From a bacterium (GTDB lineage: Bacteria > Bacteroidota > Bacteroidia > Chitinophagales > JADIYW01), in contig JBBCIS010000008.1 of NCBI GenBank assembly GCA_037189845.1, forward strand, positions 120,645 through 184,644: a DNA stretch of 64,000 bases, in the 5' to 3' direction. The notes beneath the pieces are model-generated. The model made no database searches. It was not told where the DNA came from and saw only the letters and a program-made list of their open reading frames with translations. The position numbers and the translations under genes were made by a program. Position 1 is the first letter of the stretch. The number at the start of each line of letters is the position of its first letter. Below are positions 18,104 to 61,966 of this stretch, piece after piece.

Positions 18104-19099
18104 TTACAGATAACCCAGCGCATCTTCTACATTTCCTTTGGAACCGATGAAGATAGGTACGCGCTGATGTAGTTCGGTAGGCTGTACATCCAGGATTCTA
18201 CCTGTTCCGGTAGATGCCAGCCCTTCTGCCTGCTCCTGAATAAATGACATCGGGTTACACTCGTACATCAGACGGAGCTTTCCTTTGCCACTCTTTCTTC
18301 CGGACGGATAGATGAAAATTCCACCTTTCAATAAATTTCTGTGAAAATCAGCTACCATTGAACCAATATATCTCAATGAATAAGGTTTTTTGTTGTCTGA
18401 ACTTTGACAATAATCAACATACTTCTGAACTCCGTCTTCAAAATCGTGGTAATTACCTTGATTCAGAGAATATATTTTACCTTTTTCAGGAGTTTTCAGG
18501 CTTGGATGTGATAAGCAGAATTCACCAATAGCAATATCCAGTGTAAATCCATTCACCCCATCGCCTGTTGTATATACAAGCATAGTTGATGAGCCATAGA
18601 TGACATATCCGGCAGCTACCTGCCTGTTTCCCGGTTGTAGAAAATCTTCGTCAGTACATGGTGTGCCGATAGGAGATAGTCTTTTATAGATAGAGAAGAT
18701 CGTTCCCACCGGAGCATTGCAGTCAATATTGGAAGAACCATCCAATGGGTCAAACAGCACTAAATACTTAGCATTTCTGCATTGAGGTTCATTGTGAAAT
18801 GATACGAAAGTGTCCTCTTCTTCAGAAGCTATTCCACAACATTCACCGCTGGTTTTAAGACATTTGATCAGAATATCGTTCGCGAACTCATCCAGCTTTT
18901 TGACTTCTTCACCCTGTACATTTGTGGAGCCGGCTTCACCCAGAATATGTTCTACCAGACCAGCTTTGCTGAGATCTCTGTTTACAATTTTTGCGGCTAC
19001 ACCTATATCTCTGAGTAATCTGGATAATTCTCCTGTTGCGCCCGGTGCGTCTTTTTGACCTTGTATGATAAATTCATCTAAGGTGATCAGTTTCTCCAT
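18104..19099 (-). CDS. fbp: Fructose-1,6-bisphosphatase class 1
   Basis: [36 protein letters not shown]. Confidence 0.97.
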
Positions 19100-19356
19100 G
19101 TGTTCAAATTGTCTGAGCGCAAATATATGGTTTAATATGAATTATGCTTTGGAAAAGCTTACTTATTACTGATTATTCAGATGTGCTTCTGAATAAAAGA
19201 GTTAATGAAGTTCTTCTCATGTTGATTAAAAATAAAAATGCACTTCAATCAGGTTTTTACTATAGATTTGAACTGTATTTATAATGTGTGTTTAATGATA
19301 TTGATTTCTTCAGAAAGGAAGGATAGAAATGAAGCAATTTAAACTTGACTGATCAA

Positions 19357-19385
19357 TAAAAAACGCCGCCTTTTAGGGCGACGTT
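19357..19385 (-). terminator. Intrinsic terminator after the TonB-dependent receptor
   Basis: Minus strand AACGTCGCC-ctaaaa-GGCGGCGTT followed by a T-run. Confidence 0.7.
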
Positions 19386-19414
19386 CTTATTTTAAGTGTA
19401 GTTATTGATATAGA

Positions 19415-21967
19415 TTAATTGGCAGATTTTTTAAACGAGTACTTAAGTGTGACGCCAAATGTAAGCGGGTCACCTAATACAGCAGCATAATGACCGGCAT
19501 TACCACCTGCAGGAAGTAATTGCTCGAAATAATCTTTGTCAGTCAGGTTACGACCCCAAACTGTAATAGAAAGACCATTGTCTGCTCTGAAACCAGCTCT
19601 GGCATTCAGTAAAGCATAACCATCAATATTCAGATATTGCGATGGCGATGGGCTGGATGAGAATTTACTTCTGAAAAATAAATCCACTCCTAAGAAATAA
19701 TTACCGGCTAAACCCAATAGTTTACCGTAGATCTGACCATCTCCACCGAATGAACCTGACCATTTAGAGATACCCGGAAGCTCTCCACCTGATATATCTT
19801 TAAATGCAGCCGTTCCACCTGTTTCCTCCAATGGCACCGGTGCATTAGTGAATTTTACATATTTTCCATCAGTATAAGCTAATGCCGTGTTGAATGTAAG
19901 ATTTTTGTTGACACGGAAGTTTCCGTCTAATTCAACTCCATGTACTCTTACTTTTTCAGCATTGGCAAGATATCCTCTGTTTACGCCCAACTCGGCAGTT
20001 TGTACCTGAGTTTGATAGTCATTAATGAGTGTGTGGAAGTAGGTTACATTCAAAATGGATTTGGTATTTGGACTACTTTTGATACCTACTTCTATGTGAT
20101 TGACACGTTCAGGCTTGATTTCTGCCAGTTCCAACATTGGTTGACCGTTAGCATTTGGAAGCCCTGCCGGATTTACACCTACAGGTTTGTAGCTGAGTGC
20201 ATAAGTTGCAAAACCGTTGATTTTCTTTGCTCTGTATGATAAGGTTGCCTGACCGGAAAAATTATGGTTTTTTACATCAGCTATGAATGCCTGACTGCCG
20301 TATACTGCGTTTTTCAGTGCAATCAATGCAGGATCATCTGTTTGTAAGCCACCAAATGTAGTTCTTTTGTAGTCCACATATTTTTTGTCATAGTTGTATC
20401 TCACACCCGGTAAGAAGTGGAATTTTTTTAATACTTCCCAGTCTGCCTGTGCAAACACTGCGGCTCCGAAAGTTTCTAATGTAGAGTTTGTTTTGATGCC
20501 ATAACCTTCAAAAAGGTTAGGTGTTTGCCATAATGGGCTGGTAGAGCTTTGGGAGAATCTCCATTGAGCAGAACCTGATTCTTCTGTACCGTCAATTGTG
20601 ATATTCTGGTCGATTAAGAATACCCCGATAACACCGCTTAATTTCTTATTGATTTCCCCTGCGTATCTTAATTCCTGAGACCAGTTTCTGTGTTTGGAAG
20701 GGTTTTGAGATTTTGCGAGTGCCTGTAATCCTGTAAAGTCTCTGTCATTGGACGGATCCCAGTTCCAGAATCTCCACGCAGTAGTTGATGTCAGCTTACC
20801 AGGACCTAATTTGATATCCACATTGGCAGATGCTCCACCTACGTCATTACCTGAACGCCATGGAGTATCGTGGTCTATTAATCTGTCGAAAGGATTTCTG
20901 CTTGGCAGCTCATAATTCAGATCTTTAATGATATTATCAAATTGTCTGTATTCAGCTCTTTGAGTTTTTACTACACCGGCCACTACCTGTGCATAACCTT
21001 CCGGTCGCTGACGGTTGTAATCTCCTGATAAAGTAATAGCAATATTATCTGTCGGCAGATAGAGAATCTGTCCTTTTACACCCAGGTTATTCAGGTCATT
21101 GATATATTTTTGAGTCACTATATTGTATACGTTGCCATCTCTTTGTGTTCCTGCAAACGATATTCTACCAGCAACTTTCTTGCTCCATAATGGTCCGGTG
21201 ACAGATGCTTTTGCCTGAATATATCCATAGTTTCCATAGCTGGCTTCAAAAGTAGCACCTGGCTGGAAGCTTGGTTTTCGGGTGGTAATATTGATAGCTC
21301 CTGCAGTTGTGTTTTTACCGAATAATGTTCCTTGTGGACCACGCAGGATTTCAACCCGTTCTACATCTATAAAGTCAAAAGTAGCAATTGCAGGTCTTGC
21401 ATGGTAAACTCCATCAATGTATACACCTACGCCCGGATCAATACCGTCATTTGTCAATCCAAATGTAGAGCCCAGACCACGAATGTTCAATGTTGTATTT
21501 CTTGGATTAGAAGTATATAACTGTAATGTAGGCGCACTTTCTTTGATTCTGTTTACGTTGAATGCTCCCTGGTCGTCAATTGCTTTTCCTCCGATAACAG
21601 AAATTGCAATTGGAATTTCTTGTAAGGTTTCTTCTCTACGACGTGCTGTTACTGTTACTTCTGTCAGTTCGATATTGTCATCCAAAATAATATCCAGATG
21701 AGTTTTTTCTTCTTCGATTTTGATTTCTCTGGTATTATAACCAACAGAACTGATTTTTAGAATATAAGGAAGTTCTTCAGGAACCTGAAGTTTAAAATTG
21801 CCGTCTTCATCAGCAATTGCATACAATTTTTCATTTTTAACTTCTACAGTGGCAAAAATAACAGGCTCATTAGCCGAATTTCTGATTTTTCCAGTGATGA
21901 ATTTTGCTGCATATGCATCTTGACCGATGAATAGTGCAATGGTAAGGAGTGTAAGTATTTTTTTCAT
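19415..21967 (-). CDS. TonB-dependent outer-membrane receptor with N-terminal CarboxypepD_reg-like domain; sulfur-depleted
   Basis: Signal peptide, VTVTARRREETLQEIP, plug motif ERVEILRGPQGTLFGKNTTAGAINI, barrel ending near YSF; no SusD partner; 0 Cys and 2 Met by manual count. Confidence 0.95.
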   Translation of the reverse strand: MKKILTLLTIALFIGQDAYAAKFITGKIRNSANEPVIFATVEVKNEKLYAIADEDGNFKLQVPEELPYILKISSVGYNTREIKIEEEKTHLDIILDDNIELTEVTVTARRREETLQEIPIAISVIGGKAIDDQGAFNVNRIKESAPTLQLYTSNPRNTTLNIRGLGSTFGLTNDGIDPGVGVYIDGVYHARPAIATFDFIDVERVEILRGPQGTLFGKNTTAGAINITTRKPSFQPGATFEASYGNYGYIQAKASVTGPLWSKKVAGRISFAGTQRDGNVYNIVTQKYINDLNNLGVKGQILYLPTDNIAITLSGDYNRQRPEGYAQVVAGVVKTQRAEYRQFDNIIKDLNYELPSRNPFDRLIDHDTPWRSGNDVGGASANVDIKLGPGKLTSTTAWRFWNWDPSNDRDFTGLQALAKSQNPSKHRNWSQELRYAGEINKKLSGVIGVFLIDQNITIDGTEESGSAQWRFSQSSTSPLWQTPNLFEGYGIKTNSTLETFGAAVFAQADWEVLKKFHFLPGVRYNYDKKYVDYKRTTFGGLQTDDPALIALKNAVYGSQAFIADVKNHNFSGQATLSYRAKKINGFATYALSYKPVGVNPAGLPNANGQPMLELAEIKPERVNHIEVGIKSSPNTKSILNVTYFHTLINDYQTQVQTAELGVNRGYLANAEKVRVHGVELDGNFRVNKNLTFNTALAYTDGKYVKFTNAPVPLEETGGTAAFKDISGGELPGISKWSGSFGGDGQIYGKLLGLAGNYFLGVDLFFRSKFSSSPSPSQYLNIDGYALLNARAGFRADNGLSITVWGRNLTDKDYFEQLLPAGGNAGHYAAVLGDPLTFGVTLKYSFKKSAN

Positions 21968-22010
21968 TTTATGATTTTGATATTGTTGTAAATGTTTGAT
22001 TGGTTAGGTG

Positions 22011-22061
22011 TTACAATATGCCACAACAATAGGGTCTGATAAAAATGAGTTGATTCTTCAT
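22011..22061 (-). CDS. Putative Cys-Cys leader peptide MKNQLIFIRPYCCGIL (16 aa)
   Basis: ATG AAG AAT CAA CTC ATT TTT ATC AGA CCC TAT TGT TGT GGC ATA TTG TAA, located between a TAnnTTTG promoter and the receptor start. Confidence 0.65.
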   Translation of the reverse strand: MKNQLIFIRPYCCGIL

Positions 22062-22084
22062 GGTGTCTAAGTATGATTCGGCAA

Positions 22085-22092
22085 CAAAGATA
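22085..22092 (-). promoter_or_regulatory. Bacteroidota sigma70 -7 element (TATCTTTG) for the leader-receptor transcript
   Basis: Exact TAnnTTTG match 23 nt upstream of the leader ATG. Confidence 0.7.
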
Positions 22093-22095
22093 TGA

Positions 22096-22163
22096 ATAGA
22101 TTTCTATATTCCTACTAATATTATAGATTAAATAGAAATAATAGATTAAATAGAGTTAGTAGG
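22096..22163. promoter_or_regulatory. Operator-like region with a direct repeat and a flanking inverted repeat
   Basis: ATAGATTAAATAGA at 22123-22136 and 22141-22154; CCTACTAA (22111-22118) and TTAGTAGG (22156-22163) are inverted. Confidence 0.5.
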
Positions 22164-22429
22164 GTTTGAGAATCAAAAAATTAGAATCAAAAAAATTATT
22201 GATTAAGGTGAAAAATTTAGCCGGATGTAAATGAATAGCCGGTTATCTGATTGTAATTCTGACAATTATTGAACTGTATTAAAATTTTGTAATTCTGTAA
22301 CTTTTTGAGAGATATTAAAGCCCGGAAAGTCTCCAGCCCCCAAAGAATGCTCTAATATTAAGAAAGGTTAAATATTTGCAAAAAGGACTGATTTTTATTG
22401 AATAGTCTGAGCCTTTATTATTTTTGAAT

Positions 22430-23788
22430 ATGCATATCCTTGTAGTGGATGACGATATCGCTTTTAATGATTTACTCAATAGATTTCTTACGAAAGAAGG
22501 TTTTATTGTGGAATCTGTTTACAGCTCAAAGGAAGTTTTAAATATCATTCAACAAAAAAGGGTAGATCTTGTCCTGGTAGATTACCAGCTGCCAGGTATG
22601 GACGGATTACAGCTGACAGAAAAAATCCACAACGAGCATCCGGGGTTACCGGTAATTCTGATCACCAATTATGCTGATATACGTGTCGCAGTAAATTCTA
22701 TCAAATTAGGTGCTTTTGAATTTGTAAGCAAACCGGTTATTCCGGATGAATTGCTGAAAATCATCAGGCTCGCGTTAACGAACACTTCAACTGTTACACA
22801 GAAAATATCTGTTCCTCCTCAGTATGTTATAGGTGAAAATGAAATGATGTCACAGCTGTGGAAACATCTTTCTGTAGTAGCGCCTACAAAAATGAATGTA
22901 TTGATCACGGGAGAAAGTGGTACAGGAAAAGAACATATCGCCCGGACTATCCACCAGATGAGCCGCCGTTCTCAGGGCCCGTTTGTGGCTGTAGATTGTG
23001 GTGCTTTGACTGTAGAGTTGGCTGGAAGTGAACTTTTCGGACATGTCAAAGGAGCTTTTACAGGAGCGAATGCAGATAAAAAAGGGCTTTTTGAAGAAGC
23101 TAAAGGCGGGACGCTGTTTCTGGATGAGGTTGGTAATTTACCTTATGAAATTCAGGTAGCATTATTGAGGGCAATTCAGGAGGAAACAGTTAAGAGAGTA
23201 GGAGGGAATAAGGAAATCAAAGTAGATGTGCGTCTGGTGGCAGCGACTAATGATAGGCTGGCGGAGAGTATAGAAAATCAGGTGTTCAGAAATGATCTGT
23301 TTCACCGTTTGAATGAATTTGAGCTTTATCTTCCGCCACTCAGAGACAGAATCAGTGATATTCTTGAATATTGTCAGTTCTTTATAGAGGCGGCCTGTGA
23401 GGAATTTGAGAAACCTGTGCTCAGATTGCATGAAGATGTAAAACAGATTTTTATGCATTATTCATGGCCGGGCAATCTGCGTGAGCTGAAAAACATTATC
23501 AGGAGAGCGGTCGTACTGGCAACCGGTGAAGAGCTGACGGCAGATCTACTTCCGGTAGGGTTGCAGGAAATGGCAATATCTGAACCATTGGTACAAAATG
23601 AAACTCTGAAAACAACCGGTCCGGTTCAGACTTTGAATATGAAAGATCAGAATCAGGAATTAGAAAAGCGCTTGCTGGTTGAAGCTTTGGAAAAATTCAA
23701 ATACAATAAAACAAAGGCTGCTGAAGCACTGAATATTGATCGTTCTACTTTGTACAAAAAGCTGAAGCAGTATAATATTGAAGCATAG
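22430..23788 (+). CDS. Sigma54-dependent response regulator (NtrC family: REC, AAA+, Fis HTH)
   Basis: ILVVDDD, DYQLPGMDG, GESGTGKE, GAFTGA, LFLDEVG, WPGNLREL, KTKAAEALNIDRSTLYKKL; ATG at 22430. Confidence 0.96.
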   Translation: MHILVVDDDIAFNDLLNRFLTKEGFIVESVYSSKEVLNIIQQKRVDLVLVDYQLPGMDGLQLTEKIHNEHPGLPVILITNYADIRVAVNSIKLGAFEFVSKPVIPDELLKIIRLALTNTSTVTQKISVPPQYVIGENEMMSQLWKHLSVVAPTKMNVLITGESGTGKEHIARTIHQMSRRSQGPFVAVDCGALTVELAGSELFGHVKGAFTGANADKKGLFEEAKGGTLFLDEVGNLPYEIQVALLRAIQEETVKRVGGNKEIKVDVRLVAATNDRLAESIENQVFRNDLFHRLNEFELYLPPLRDRISDILEYCQFFIEAACEEFEKPVLRLHEDVKQIFMHYSWPGNLRELKNIIRRAVVLATGEELTADLLPVGLQEMAISEPLVQNETLKTTGPVQTLNMKDQNQELEKRLLVEALEKFKYNKTKAAEALNIDRSTLYKKLKQYNIEA

Positions 23789-53792: not shown

Positions 53793-54299
53793 ATGGCAGT
53801 TAAAATTCGTCTTCAAAGACACGGTAAAAAAGGAAAACCTTTTTACAAAATTGTTGCTGCAGACAGCAGAGCAAGAAGAGATGGTAAATTCATCGAAGCA
53901 TTGGGTTCTTACAACCCGACTACAGTTCCTGCAACTATCGAATTAGATGTTGACAGATCTGTTTACTGGTTACAGAATGGTGCAGAGCCAACTGACACAG
54001 TAAAATCTATCCTTCAGTTCAAAGGAGCGCTTTACAAAAAACACTTGTTAAGAGGTGTTGCTAAAGGATCTTTTTCAGTAGAAGAGGCAGAAGCTAAATT
54101 TGGTGAGTGGATCGCTAACAAAAACAATATTGTTGTAGCTGCTCAGGATGGCGCAAAAGCTAAAAAACTAGCTGCTTACGAAGCATCTGTACAAGCCGGA
54201 AAAGAAAGAGCTGAAGCAAGATTGAAGTCAAAAGAAGTAGCAGAAGAGGCTCCGGCAGAGGAAGCTGCTGCTGAAGCTGAAGAAAATAGCGCAGAATAA
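53793..54299 (+). CDS. rpsP: 30S ribosomal protein S16 with Bacteroidota C-terminal extension
   Basis: [25 protein letters not shown]; TACCTTTG promoter box at 53714. Confidence 0.98.
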
Positions 54300-60082: not shown

Positions 60083-61966
60083 ATGAAACAAAATTTAATA
60101 ATTACAGGAATTCTAACAATCATCACGCTTTTCATTGATCCCGTTCAGGCACAAAAAAAAAGCTACTCTGCTCAGATTGACAGTATTCTGCAAACAACGC
60201 AGCCAAGATCTTTTAACGGAGTAGTAGTTGTATCACAAAATGGCAAGACGCTTTATTCCAAAGCCTATGGATATTCAGATTTTAACAAGAAAAAACCACT
60301 CGATATTTCGGACAGATTTTCTACTATGTCTTTAGCCAAGCAAATTACTGCGACACTCATTCTGCTGGAAGTAGAGAAAGGGACAATTGATTTGCATACA
60401 CCTATCAGAAAGTATTTGCCTGATCTGAAATACTCATGGGCGGATACAGTGACAGTTCATCATTTGCTGAATAATACTTCAGGGTTACATAGTGAAAGTA
60501 TAGATCAGCCGCTCAAATTTATTCCGGGAACAACATTCAGCTATTCCAATATCGGATTTTCTATTGCAGCAAAGGTACTGGAAGCACAATCCGGTAAAAG
60601 CTATCGGCAGCTGGTCACTGAATTATTTTCAAAATGTGGAATGACACAAAGCGCATATCCAACAAAAAAGAACAGATCTATGCTTTCGAAAGGGCATACT
60701 ATTAAGGAAAACGGAGATGCTGTCCTGAATAAGAGCATTAGCTTTCAGCCGACTCTTTTCCCCGGAAGTCATTTAATGGTGACAGCAGGCGATCTGGCAT
60801 TGTGGAATGAATGTCTGCACAATGGAAAGCTATTACAACCTGCTACTTACGATTTGATGGTCAATTATAGTACAACAGCTGTTCATCCTTTGTTTAGCAA
60901 AGAACCTGTCGGATATGGCTATGGATTGCGCATCAATGAAAAAAACGGCTTTTATGAAATAGGCCATACCGGATTTCACTCCGACGAAGGTTTTACTGCA
61001 GTGAATTTATATTATCCTGAAACCAATACCAGTGTGGTCGTTCTGGAAAATCAGGCAAACGAAAACTTTGACATTGCCTATCATTTTGAGCAGGAAGTCA
61101 GAAAAATAGTACTTAATAGCGAGCTTGTCAAAACTGTATCAAATCATGGCATCAACTCGTTGAAACAACAAATCAGTTCAATCATAGCTGGTAAAAAGGC
61201 AACAATCGGTATAGCTGTTTTGGGGCCGGATAGCAGCTCTATTGATTTTGATGGCGACAGCTTTTTCCCGATGCTGAGCACATTCAAGTTTCCTGTTGCA
61301 TTGACTGTTTTAAATAAAGTGGAGAAAGGGGAGCTATCCATGAATCAAAAGATATTCATTAAAAAAGAGGAGTTGCTGGAAAATACCTGGAGTCCTTTCC
61401 AAAAGAAGTTTCCCGAAGGCAATATTGCTATAACTATAGAAGAAGCGTTGACGTGGGTGACCTCTTACAGTGATAATAATCTTACAGATATTTTATTGAG
61501 ACTAATCGGTGGAACTGGACAAGTGGCTCAATTTATTGACAGCGATCAATTTATTATTAAAAACAATGAGGAAGATATGCATCAGAACTGGGATGCACAA
61601 TTGGTCAATAAAATTACACCAAAAGAATCTATCCGTTTGTTACAGCAATTTGATAGTGAAAAAATGTTGAATCAGGAACACACCCAATGGCTGTACAATG
61701 CTATGGTAAATAGCAATACCGGTCTGCAGCGTTTAAGAGGCAAGCTCCCTCAGGAAGTGATAGTCGCACACCGTACAGGGACTTCTTTTACCAATGATGC
61801 AGGGTTGACAGGTGCCATCAATAATTTCGGAATCATAGAGCTGCCGGACAAACAAAAAATATACATTGCCGTGTTTGTACATAATACAACGGAAGCGTTC
61901 AGCAAAGGAGAAGAAATCATTGCTGATATTGCAAAAGCCGTGTATGACTATTATCTGAAAAAATAG
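60083..61966 (+). CDS. Fusion of a class C-like serine hydrolase and a class A (A2-like) beta-lactamase
   Basis: One signal peptide; domain 1 SLAK, YSN, GHTG; domain 2 STFK, SDN, NEEDMH, HRTG; ATG at 60083 preferred. Confidence 0.85.
   Translation: MKQNLIITGILTIITLFIDPVQAQKKSYSAQIDSILQTTQPRSFNGVVVVSQNGKTLYSKAYGYSDFNKKKPLDISDRFSTMSLAKQITATLILLEVEKGTIDLHTPIRKYLPDLKYSWADTVTVHHLLNNTSGLHSESIDQPLKFIPGTTFSYSNIGFSIAAKVLEAQSGKSYRQLVTELFSKCGMTQSAYPTKKNRSMLSKGHTIKENGDAVLNKSISFQPTLFPGSHLMVTAGDLALWNECLHNGKLLQPATYDLMVNYSTTAVHPLFSKEPVGYGYGLRINEKNGFYEIGHTGFHSDEGFTAVNLYYPETNTSVVVLENQANENFDIAYHFEQEVRKIVLNSELVKTVSNHGINSLKQQISSIIAGKKATIGIAVLGPDSSSIDFDGDSFFPMLSTFKFPVALTVLNKVEKGELSMNQKIFIKKEELLENTWSPFQKKFPEGNIAITIEEALTWVTSYSDNNLTDILLRLIGGTGQVAQFIDSDQFIIKNNEEDMHQNWDAQLVNKITPKESIRLLQQFDSEKMLNQEHTQWLYNAMVNSNTGLQRLRGKLPQEVIVAHRTGTSFTNDAGLTGAINNFGIIELPDKQKIYIAVFVHNTTEAFSKGEEIIADIAKAVYDYYLKK

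Follow-up and report, generated by a model that had tools for sequence, protein, structure and literature searches.

A window of 64,000 nucleotides from a Chitinophagales genome (assembly GCA_037189845.1, contig JBBCIS010000008.1, positions 120,645 to 184,644) carries a gene for a TonB-dependent outer-membrane receptor of 850 amino acids that has no cysteine and only one methionine besides the initiator. It is proposed that this receptor is a stand-alone transporter of the sulfur-limitation response, from which methionine and cysteine have been removed by selection, and that it imports a sulfur source; the probability of this reading is put at about 0.75. The evidence that carries it was observed directly: the composition of the receptor and its conservation among orthologs, the leaders with cysteine codons upstream of the gene, the potential of these leaders to pair with the initiation region, and the gene neighbourhoods of relatives.

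An initial annotation of the window had made the same composition count, with the internal methionine in GQPMLEL, and the count is right; the strand, which was unstated there, is minus. Its figures of 11 methionines and 2 cysteines for the 627-amino-acid beta-lactamase fusion of the window (60083-61966) are likewise correct.

Sulfur depletion of the receptor and its orthologs

The genome used for comparison was the whole 4.09-Mb assembly, from which 31 receptor-like open reading frames (ORFs) were gathered by iterative hidden Markov model search. With the initiator included, methionine and cysteine make up 0.24% of the window receptor, the lowest value among the 31. The next is 0.48% and the other full-length receptors have 1.14 to 2.72%, thus the other receptors of the genome are not equally methionine-poor, which would have spoken against the initial annotation. 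The full-length paralogs contain 4 to 31 methionines, and the 30 other receptor-like ORFs 0 to 6 cysteines. Among 2794 ORFs of at least 150 amino acids, which have a median methionine and cysteine content of 2.82%, the receptor is the eighth lowest by fraction and by far the longest of the extremes. For 849 residues with one methionine or cysteine, or none, the binomial probability is 3e-6 if the receptor mean of 1.8% is assumed, and 7e-10 if the proteome median is assumed. The receptor is not the only case of sulfur sparing in this genome, because the O-acetylhomoserine sulfhydrylase (431 amino acids, 1 internal methionine and 0 cysteine) is nearly sulfur-free as well.

About 200 orthologs, with 55 to 94% identity, were found in Flavobacterium, Chitinophagaceae, Sphingobacteriaceae, and Cytophagales. 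These have no cysteine and mostly 1 to 3 methionines, often the initiator alone. In a search of 5.8 billion proteins, the matches listed include 119 homologs with 63 to 94% identity, from Spirosoma, Chitinophaga, Olivibacter, Paraflavitalea, and others, of which nearly all have 0 cysteine and 1 to 5 methionines and 27 have the initiator only. Eighty loci of named genomes were examined too, the majority from Flavobacterium and the others from Chitinophagaceae, Sphingobacterium, Parapedobacter, Prolixibacteraceae, Dysgonamonadaceae, and Ohtaekwangia. For the 79 orthologs of named genomes the median is 1 internal methionine and 0 cysteine; another outer-membrane barrel protein of about 930 amino acids, encoded in the same Flavobacterium loci, retains 10 methionines in the median. 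The stray methionines and cysteines of the orthologs are mostly in the cleaved signal peptide, therefore many of the mature proteins of about 830 amino acids would hold no sulfur. Met611 is the sole semi-conserved one, and after cleavage the window receptor would carry one sulfur atom, in this residue. Distant homologs (30 to 49% identity, without the N-terminal domain) are often sulfur-poor too. The depletion is a family trait, and its conservation in the orthologs speaks for selection and not for drift.

It could be argued that the low content reflects the ordinary composition of outer-membrane barrels together with chance, without any functional message. Barrels are generally without cysteine, in keeping with the counts in the other receptor-like ORFs given above, and other exported proteins of the genome have about 0.4% methionine and cysteine. 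It is methionine that discriminates, given the range in the paralogs against the one internal residue here and the binomial probability at the receptor mean. The trait is also found in orthologs across several orders, in loci where the neighbouring barrel protein keeps its methionines, and co-located proteins that are not barrels (binding proteins, TauD, and O-acetylhomoserine sulfhydrylase) are sulfur-free too. Chance or generic barrel composition was largely excluded by these paralog and ortholog controls, and it is the least probable of the explanations considered here.

The receptor gene has a patchy distribution, being present in 16 of 301 sampled Bacteroidota genomes (7 of 142 genera) and in 1 of 40 close relatives of the genome studied. 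Synteny within this lineage is uninformative, because the close relatives mostly lack the gene. In the genomes of the 94% and 78% orthologs it likewise stands alone amid unrelated genes.

Other sulfur-poor products were seen in the genome. A second sulfur-poor transporter, at C1:78719-87521 on the plus strand (C marks positions elsewhere in this genome and L those in loci of relatives), is a SusC-like protein of 1035 amino acids with 3 methionines and 1 cysteine besides the initiator. Downstream of its gene are a SusD-like gene and three paralogs that encode membrane proteins of 440 to 500 amino acids, and an operator-like site, TACTCTATTTAATTGATATACTA, is in its promoter region. A ribosomal protein S16-like product of 168 amino acids in the window (53793-54299, plus strand) has no methionine past the initiator and no cysteine, as does an L4-like protein at C3:621069-621707.

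Leaders and their potential pairing with the initiation region

Upstream of the receptor gene is a short ORF, MKNQLIFIRPYCCGIL, with tandem cysteine codons near its end. In the 94% ortholog the leader is MKNQLIFIRPYCCVQL and in the 78% ortholog it is MRPYRLFIRPYC, with a stop codon after it. The endings vary by lineage, from ...RPYCCGIL in the window to ...RCC, ...RCCCL, and ...HRCCTGKS in Chitinophagaceae and ...SSMMCMCW in Flavobacterium, where the leaders have 34 to 37 codons and are at the same distance from the receptor gene. An upstream short ORF with at least 2 cysteines in its last 8 codons is present for 64 of 81 orthologs, as against 10 of 506 other genes of the same loci. On this comparison, MKNQLIFIRPYCCGIL is best regarded as a putative leader with regulatory cysteine codons, conserved in close orthologs and with functional equivalents in other lineages.

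The arm of the leader that encodes Tyr-Cys-Cys, TATTGTTGT, is exactly complementary to ACAACAATA, just upstream of the receptor start codon (Table 1). The corresponding arms of Flavobacterium are TGTGTATGTGTTGGTAA and CTACTAATCACATATAC, with hairpins of -15 to -19 kcal/mol and z-scores of about -3 (-3.35 being reached at -15.1 kcal/mol). The Flavobacterium 3' arm is another sequence at the same place; the arms differ between the lineages yet remain complementary. There is no intrinsic terminator in the 43-nucleotide spacer between leader and receptor gene, and no match of relevance for the leader, of which Rfam has no model, came from an Rfam search of 19000-22600 with E-values up to 1. The lack of a terminator, together with the complementarity of the cysteine codons to the initiation region, suggests that control is exerted on translation and not on transcription.

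A motif, FIRPYC, is common to the leader peptides of the three closest orthologs (the window, L086, and L087), with a TGA stop in place of the second cysteine codon in L086. Given this conserved peptide sequence, the nascent chain itself may contribute to stalling.

The whole genome was scanned for short intergenic ORFs in which cysteine codons directly follow one another, and three strong cases, each with a terminator behind it, were identified. The first (...AAAACCCCCQLTKGRGMSKAK, with a run of 5 cysteines; C8:92176-92286, minus strand) precedes a CysM-like cysteine synthase. The second (MGKSCKISMCCCCRNSDRVR, 4 cysteines; C8:334369-334431, plus strand) precedes a gene of the sulfite/nitrite-reductase family and sirohaem-synthesis genes, and the third (MMLRKMSGQMNCCCTNLV, 3 cysteines; C11:2819-2875, minus strand) precedes the O-acetylhomoserine sulfhydrylase. 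From their layout, these terminator-linked leaders look like a classical cysteine attenuation regulon in a Chitinophagales genome. The initial annotation had also claimed a cysteine leader upstream of the receptor; this claim has gained from the conservation of the leader among orthologs and from the like leaders that precede cysteine and methionine assimilation genes here.

The cysteine synthase operon (C8:89058-92097, minus strand) encodes the CysM-like protein, a JAB/MPN protease, a ThiS-like carrier, and a ThiF-rhodanese protein. This layout is that of the CysO-thiocarboxylate cysteine pathway of Mycobacterium tuberculosis, whose phylum also uses poly-cysteine leader ORFs.

Gene neighbourhoods and regulators

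Sulfur-poor homologs with 34 to 48% identity are found beside sulfur-related genes in other bacteria, among them Sphingobium and Zavarzinia. In Sphingobium yanoikuyae the order is receptor, MFS transporter, TauD, sulfatase, and in L172 it is receptor, MFS transporter, TauD, TauD. Zavarzinia has two such receptors with a sulfatase, TauD, an SsuA-like ABC system, TonB-ExbBD, a luciferase-type monooxygenase, a rhodanese, and a Sulf_transp permease. The TauD proteins of the Sphingobium and Zavarzinia clusters have no methionine or cysteine besides the initiator. Two metagenome contigs with homologs of 44 to 48% identity have the orders Rrf2, DUF2292, receptor, TauE (L170) and Rrf2, DUF2292, receptor (L171). 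In Olivibacter a sulfatase is directly downstream of the receptor. A pyridoxal phosphate (PLP) enzyme of cysteine and methionine metabolism is nearby in four loci, the Prolixibacteraceae copy having 461 amino acids and no methionine or cysteine besides the initiator. The neighbours that the initial annotation had predicted are therefore present at homologs, including Rrf2 (56 Flavobacterium loci and the two contigs), sulfatase, TauD, TauE (L170), and SsuA-like proteins (Zavarzinia). Its reading of the receptor as a sulfur-scavenging importer is supported by these neighbours, by the contrast with the other receptors, and by the conserved leader.

In five lineages the receptor adjoins a co-directional PBP-like or PstS-like binding protein with 0 to 2 methionines and 0 cysteine, compared to 5 methionines and 2 cysteines in ordinary PstS of the same loci. 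In Flavobacterium (L030) this protein is PstS-like, and PstC/A/B-like genes come next. This could be taken to mean uptake of phosphate or phosphoesters, given that PBP_like_2/PstS-family proteins are adjacent in L006, L007, L010, L013, L015, and L030, that PstC/A-like permeases occur in several lineages, and that the L008 permease, which was tested, passes the PstC equivalog cut-off. The phosphate explanation is rejected because the PstS-like neighbours are sulfur-free. In addition, four of the adjacent proteins have only sub-threshold matches to PBP_like_2 and lack a PDB relative, a sulfur-free O-acetylhomoserine sulfhydrylase is between the receptor and the Pst-like genes in L013, and no homolog of the binding proteins was found in the genome studied here. 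The probability left to phosphate is very small indeed.

An Rrf2 regulator is encoded directly upstream of the receptor, on the same strand, in 56 Flavobacterium loci, often with a DUF2490 outer-membrane protein downstream; the full order of Rrf2, leader, receptor, and DUF2490 is present, for instance, in F. saccharophilum DSM 1811 (L073) and F. denitrificans DSM 15936 (L032). This Rrf2 partner carries a four-cysteine cluster typical of Fe-S or redox sensors. In the genome studied, an Rrf2 gene whose product is 47% identical to the one upstream of the Flavobacterium receptor adjoins a DUF2490 gene (C9:126840-128244, minus strand); in Flavobacterium the receptor sits between the Rrf2 and DUF2490 genes. 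A second DUF2490 gene (C7:174798-175544) adjoins a PLP enzyme of cysteine and methionine metabolism. The DUF2292 protein of the two metagenome contigs (59 to 62 amino acids; L170:8724-8912 and L171:8720-8899), between Rrf2 and the receptor, is in the place of the Flavobacterium cysteine/methionine leader.

The predicted promoter of the receptor gene has the sequence TATCTTTG, which fits the TAnnTTTG consensus of Bacteroidota -7 promoter elements, and two operator-like sequences are upstream of this (Table 1). Similar dyads are present elsewhere in the genome upstream of a 1-Cys peroxiredoxin (C8:454762), a TauE/SafE-family permease (C1:93211), the only sulfatase (C1:711052), cysC-cysD-cysN (C1:423824), and the sulfur-poor SusC-like gene. 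The best site in the genome is 21 nucleotides upstream of the peroxiredoxin. These dyads may define the regulon of the Rrf2 protein.

The four-cysteine cluster of the Rrf2 partner and the site ahead of the peroxiredoxin would also suit an oxidative-stress regulon under a redox-sensing Rrf2 protein, in which methionine and cysteine are avoided so that a surface protein resists oxidants such as HOCl and H2O2. This leaves unexplained the cysteine and methionine codons of leaders that pair with the initiation region, the like leaders on cysteine synthase, sulfite reductase, and metY, and the TauD, sulfatase, TauE, and SsuA neighbours. Added to this, the 1-Cys peroxiredoxin LsfA is a sulfate-starvation protein in Pseudomonas. 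Oxidant resistance as the cause is considered highly unlikely.

Receptor fold, proposed mechanism, and known systems

The CarbopepD_reg_2, Plug, and TonB_dep_Rec_b-barrel domains of the receptor are all over the Pfam gathering cut-offs, and the N-terminal CarboxypepD_reg-like domain is typical for Bacteroidota receptors. The AlphaFold2 model has long paired strands, a mean confidence (pLDDT) of 69.8, and a predicted template modelling score (pTM) of 0.72, with low confidence for the TonB-box-like stretch LTEVTVTA. The top 50 Foldseek matches are TonB-dependent transporters only, the best being FyuA with a template modelling (TM) score of 0.79 on the target. By domain matches and model, the receptor is a TonB-dependent outer-membrane transporter with a plug and a predicted C-terminal barrel of 22 strands. 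The N-terminus, read by eye, is signal-peptide-like, and the last barrel strand ends in ...LKYSF, followed by KKSAN. This five-residue tail past the C-terminal aromatic residue (19415-19432, minus strand) has similar counterparts (KKSN, KRSAN, and SRSNR) in the closest relatives only; most orthologs terminate at F, Y, or L.

The gene is laid out as the initial annotation described it, monocistronic, with its own terminator (-17.1 kcal/mol, z-score -5.2) and no SusD. Downstream, past the terminator and a gap of 315 nucleotides, is a gene for fructose-1,6-bisphosphatase, hence no SusD-like gene was found next to the receptor, and upstream is a divergent sigma54 activator gene. The similarity of the fructose-1,6-bisphosphatase places the genome in Chitinophagales.

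Table 1. Features of the receptor gene and its upstream region in the window, and binding-protein genes at relatives.
Feature	Position	Strand	Remarks
TonB-dependent receptor gene	19415..21967	-	850 aa (amino acids), 0 Cys, Met at residues 1 and 611
Predicted signal peptide MKKILTLLTIALFIGQDAYA, then AKF	21908..21967	-	By eye from the translation; cleavage site inferred
CarboxypepD_reg-like domain, residues 24-106	21650..21898	-	Pfam PF13715 (CarbopepD_reg_2), 57.7 bits against cut-off 32.2
TonB-box-like motif LTEVTVTA, residues 101-108	21644..21667	-	Directly before the plug; by eye, usual consensus
Plug domain, residues 115-224	21296..21625	-	Pfam PF07715, 67.4 bits against cut-off 23.9
Beta-barrel, residues 358-808 (Pfam envelope)	19544..20896	-	PF00593, 116.4 bits against cut-off 27
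Met611 codon, sole internal Met (GQPMLEL)	20135..20137	-	Semi-conserved, in 20 of 33 aligned orthologs
Intrinsic terminator hairpin, then U-run	19355..19391	-	3' of the receptor stop; fold -17.1 kcal/mol, z -5.17
Leader ORF MKNQLIFIRPYCCGIL, then stop	22011..22061	-	16 codons, ends 43 nt (nucleotides) before the receptor ATG; tandem Cys codons at 22023-22028
5' hairpin arm TATTGTTGT	22023..22031	-	Tyr-Cys-Cys codons; pairs with the 3' arm
3' hairpin arm ACAACAATA	21981..21989	-	Fully complementary to the Cys-codon arm; 13-21 nt before the receptor ATG
Predicted promoter TATCTTTG	22085..22092	-	By eye; matches TAnnTTTG; 23 nt upstream of the leader ATG
Operator-like dyad TAATCTATAATATTAGTAGGAAT	22108..22130	-	Over the expected -33 region; resembles TAGTCTATAAAATTnGTAGAcTA at Chitinophagaceae orthologs
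Second operator-like word CTACTAACTCTAT	22150..22162	-	Pattern CTACTAAnTCTAT occurs 5 times in the genome, once 55 nt upstream of cysC-cysD-cysN
Sulfur-poor binding-protein-like genes adjoining the receptor	L006:4756-5769, L007:4802-5806, L010:8578-9543, L015:2574-3548, L030:8666-9613		

The AlphaFold2 model and Foldseek matches give no clue to the ligand and confirm the fold only, and matches in a PDB sequence search are confined to the plug domains of siderophore and B12 receptors. A siderophore-type receptor for iron chelates, under an IscR-like Rrf2 regulator, might seem to follow from annotation. The best NCBIfam match is to the siderophore-receptor subfamily TIGR01783, homologs are labelled 'iron complex outermembrane receptor protein' by the Joint Genome Institute (JGI), the best fold matches are FyuA, PqqU, YncD, and Fiu, and the Rrf2 regulators include IscR. 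However, the receptor reaches 133.9 bits with TIGR01783, where the cut-off is 223.5, and stays far below the cut-off of every equivalog model. The likeness to solved siderophore receptors is in the plug only, with an overall identity of 12 to 17%. No gene related to iron was noticed around the receptor in the sampled relatives, whereas sulfur genes are recurrent there, and control by iron would not select for a sulfur-free protein or for cysteine/methionine leaders. An iron ligand is as improbable as the oxidant explanation. Oxidants, iron, and phosphate each explain one observation, and none of them covers the cysteine/methionine leaders and the sulfur-gene contexts together.

What we infer from the observations is that sulfur limitation induces the receptor, which way the switch works, what represses the gene, and what is imported. 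Selection would have stripped methionine and cysteine from a large, probably abundant receptor, so that its synthesis could go on during a shortage of sulfur amino acids. Expression probably has two controls, a repressor on the promoter and a leader-peptide switch. The repressor, probably of the Rrf2 type, would bind the dyads over the receptor promoter. With ample Cys-tRNA, and Met-tRNA in Flavobacterium, the ribosome would clear the sensor codons of the leader (tandem cysteine codons in the window) and depart, leaving the freed codons to pair with the A-rich stretch before the receptor ATG and mask the initiation region. Bacteroidota are largely without Shine-Dalgarno-led initiation and rely on an unstructured A-rich leader, therefore pairing there should block initiation. 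When cysteine is scarce, the ribosome would stall on the cysteine codons, the pairing would be prevented, and the receptor would be translated. The imported organosulfur anion would then be passed to periplasmic or inner-membrane partners encoded elsewhere in the genome.

By analogy with the homologs, the substrate is most likely an organosulfur anion such as a sulfate ester or a sulfonate, with inorganic sulfate or thiosulfate being less likely. The neighbours of the homologs point to sulfate esters or sulfonates, and the PstS-like partners that some Bacteroidota have, being sulfur-free, are also compatible with sulfate or thiosulfate. The sulfur genes of the genome are one sulfatase (CSPSR type), SulP-type and TauE-type permeases, cysC-cysD-cysN, sulfite reductase, and cysM. 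With one sulfatase and no TauD, SsuD, or SsuA homologs, the choice of a sulfate ester or sulfonate has to be made tentatively.

There is also a bolder alternative, which is rather unlikely. The receptor family could be the outer-membrane entry point of an energised pathway, so far unrecognised in Bacteroidota, by which the inorganic sulfur oxyanions sulfate or thiosulfate are taken up. It would feed sulfur-free PstS-like proteins and Pst-like ABC permeases in some lineages, and be switched by a new translational attenuator in which cysteine and methionine codons mask an initiation region without a Shine-Dalgarno sequence.

Several points weigh against a sulfur-limitation transporter. Outer-membrane proteins are generally cysteine-poor, and the exported proteins of this genome with about 0.4% include FadL-like and SusC-like ones. 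No sulfur-related gene adjoins the receptor in the window, and the single sulfatase of the genome, which has no TauD, SsuD, or SsuA to go with it, is not sulfur-poor. The leader is absent from 17 of the 81 orthologs, such as those of Spirosoma and Olivibacter. Short ORFs with CC are common in this genome, with about 50 intergenic cases, and because of this the significance of the leader rests on its conservation. The hairpin of the window, although the minimum-energy fold, is weak (-8.6 kcal/mol, z-score -1.1) and no better than shuffled sequences, thus the pairing argument rests on the comparison across lineages. The operator regulon is suggestive only, because the motif is AT-rich and its 34 genome sites at 6 or fewer mismatches include several at unrelated genes. 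Lastly, a search of sequencing runs matched only two soil-metagenome DNA runs and no RNA run.

Sulfur acquisition is poorly charted in the Bacteroidota, a dominant phylum of soils, waters, and guts, and the generic label of iron complex outermembrane receptor conceals this family. A conserved transporter that is often sulfur-free in its mature form is an unusually clean case of elemental sparing, and the family is a ready genomic marker of sulfur limitation in metagenomes. Together, the receptor, the cysteine/methionine leaders, and the Rrf2 sites outline a sulfur regulon that is directly testable in cultivable Flavobacterium, and offer a simple model for ribosome stalling that controls translation initiation in bacteria not using Shine-Dalgarno sequences. 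The identity of the ligand would tell whether Bacteroidota need TonB energy for sulfate esters, sulfonates, or even sulfate.

A search of the full-text literature found no description of the receptor family, of its sulfur-free composition, or of cysteine/methionine leaders on the initiation region of a transporter in Bacteroidota. Sulfur-depleted starvation proteins, SftP, and the cysteine-codon leaders of Actinobacteria and mycobacteria are established.

In fold, the receptor shares the plug and 22-strand barrel of FyuA, PqqU, YncD, and Fiu (PDB 4epa, 9c4o, 6v81, and 6bpm), with Foldseek E-values of 3e-30 to 8e-27 and TM scores of 0.65 to 0.79 on the target. It differs in having 13 to 16% identity and an extra N-terminal domain absent from these, and they are uninformative on the ligand. 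With SusC/RagA it shares the CarboxypepD_reg domain followed by plug and barrel. It differs from them in a TIGR04056 score of 92.4 bits against a cut-off of 368.25, in having no adjacent SusD, and in being about 150 to 200 amino acids shorter than a typical SusC.

Sulfur-depleted starvation proteins include Sbp, CysP, TauD, and others of E. coli and Pseudomonas, and Mazel and Marliere are said to have described, in 1989, a sulfur-free phycocyanin set of cyanobacteria. As in these, methionine and cysteine are nearly eliminated from the receptor, from the O-acetylhomoserine sulfhydrylase of its genome, and from the TauD and binding proteins adjacent to homologs. What differs here is that the protein is an outer-membrane transporter of about 830 amino acids that has kept the trait across a phylum, a case that was not found described.

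SftP, from the work of Kahnert and Kertesz, is reportedly the TonB-dependent receptor encoded in the gene cluster with which Pseudomonas putida S-313 utilises sulfate esters. This protein has been counted among the characterised TonB-dependent transporters (PMC3400609). The likeness is that of a TonB-dependent receptor tied, here putatively, to a sulfur-starvation regulon. A TauD-family alkylsulfatase or a sulfatase is encoded alongside SftP, and genes of these kinds also accompany the homologs of Sphingobium, Zavarzinia, and L172. The window receptor, compared with SftP by description and not by sequence, is from the Bacteroidota, has a CarboxypepD_reg domain, and stands alone. In place of the LysR-type regulator of SftP it has a cysteine leader and, probably, an Rrf2 regulator.

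The poly-cysteine leader ORFs of mycobacteria and the cysteine leaders of Actinobacteria precede sulfur-assimilation genes and have been read as ribosome-stalling cysteine sensors (bioRxiv 10.1101/834739; PMC1262725). Leaders of this kind, with terminators, are present in the genome studied here ahead of cysM-like, sulfite-reductase-like, and metY genes. The leader of the receptor differs from these in being without a terminator and in having cysteine codons that pair with the initiation region, and the Flavobacterium leaders differ in mixing methionine with cysteine codons.

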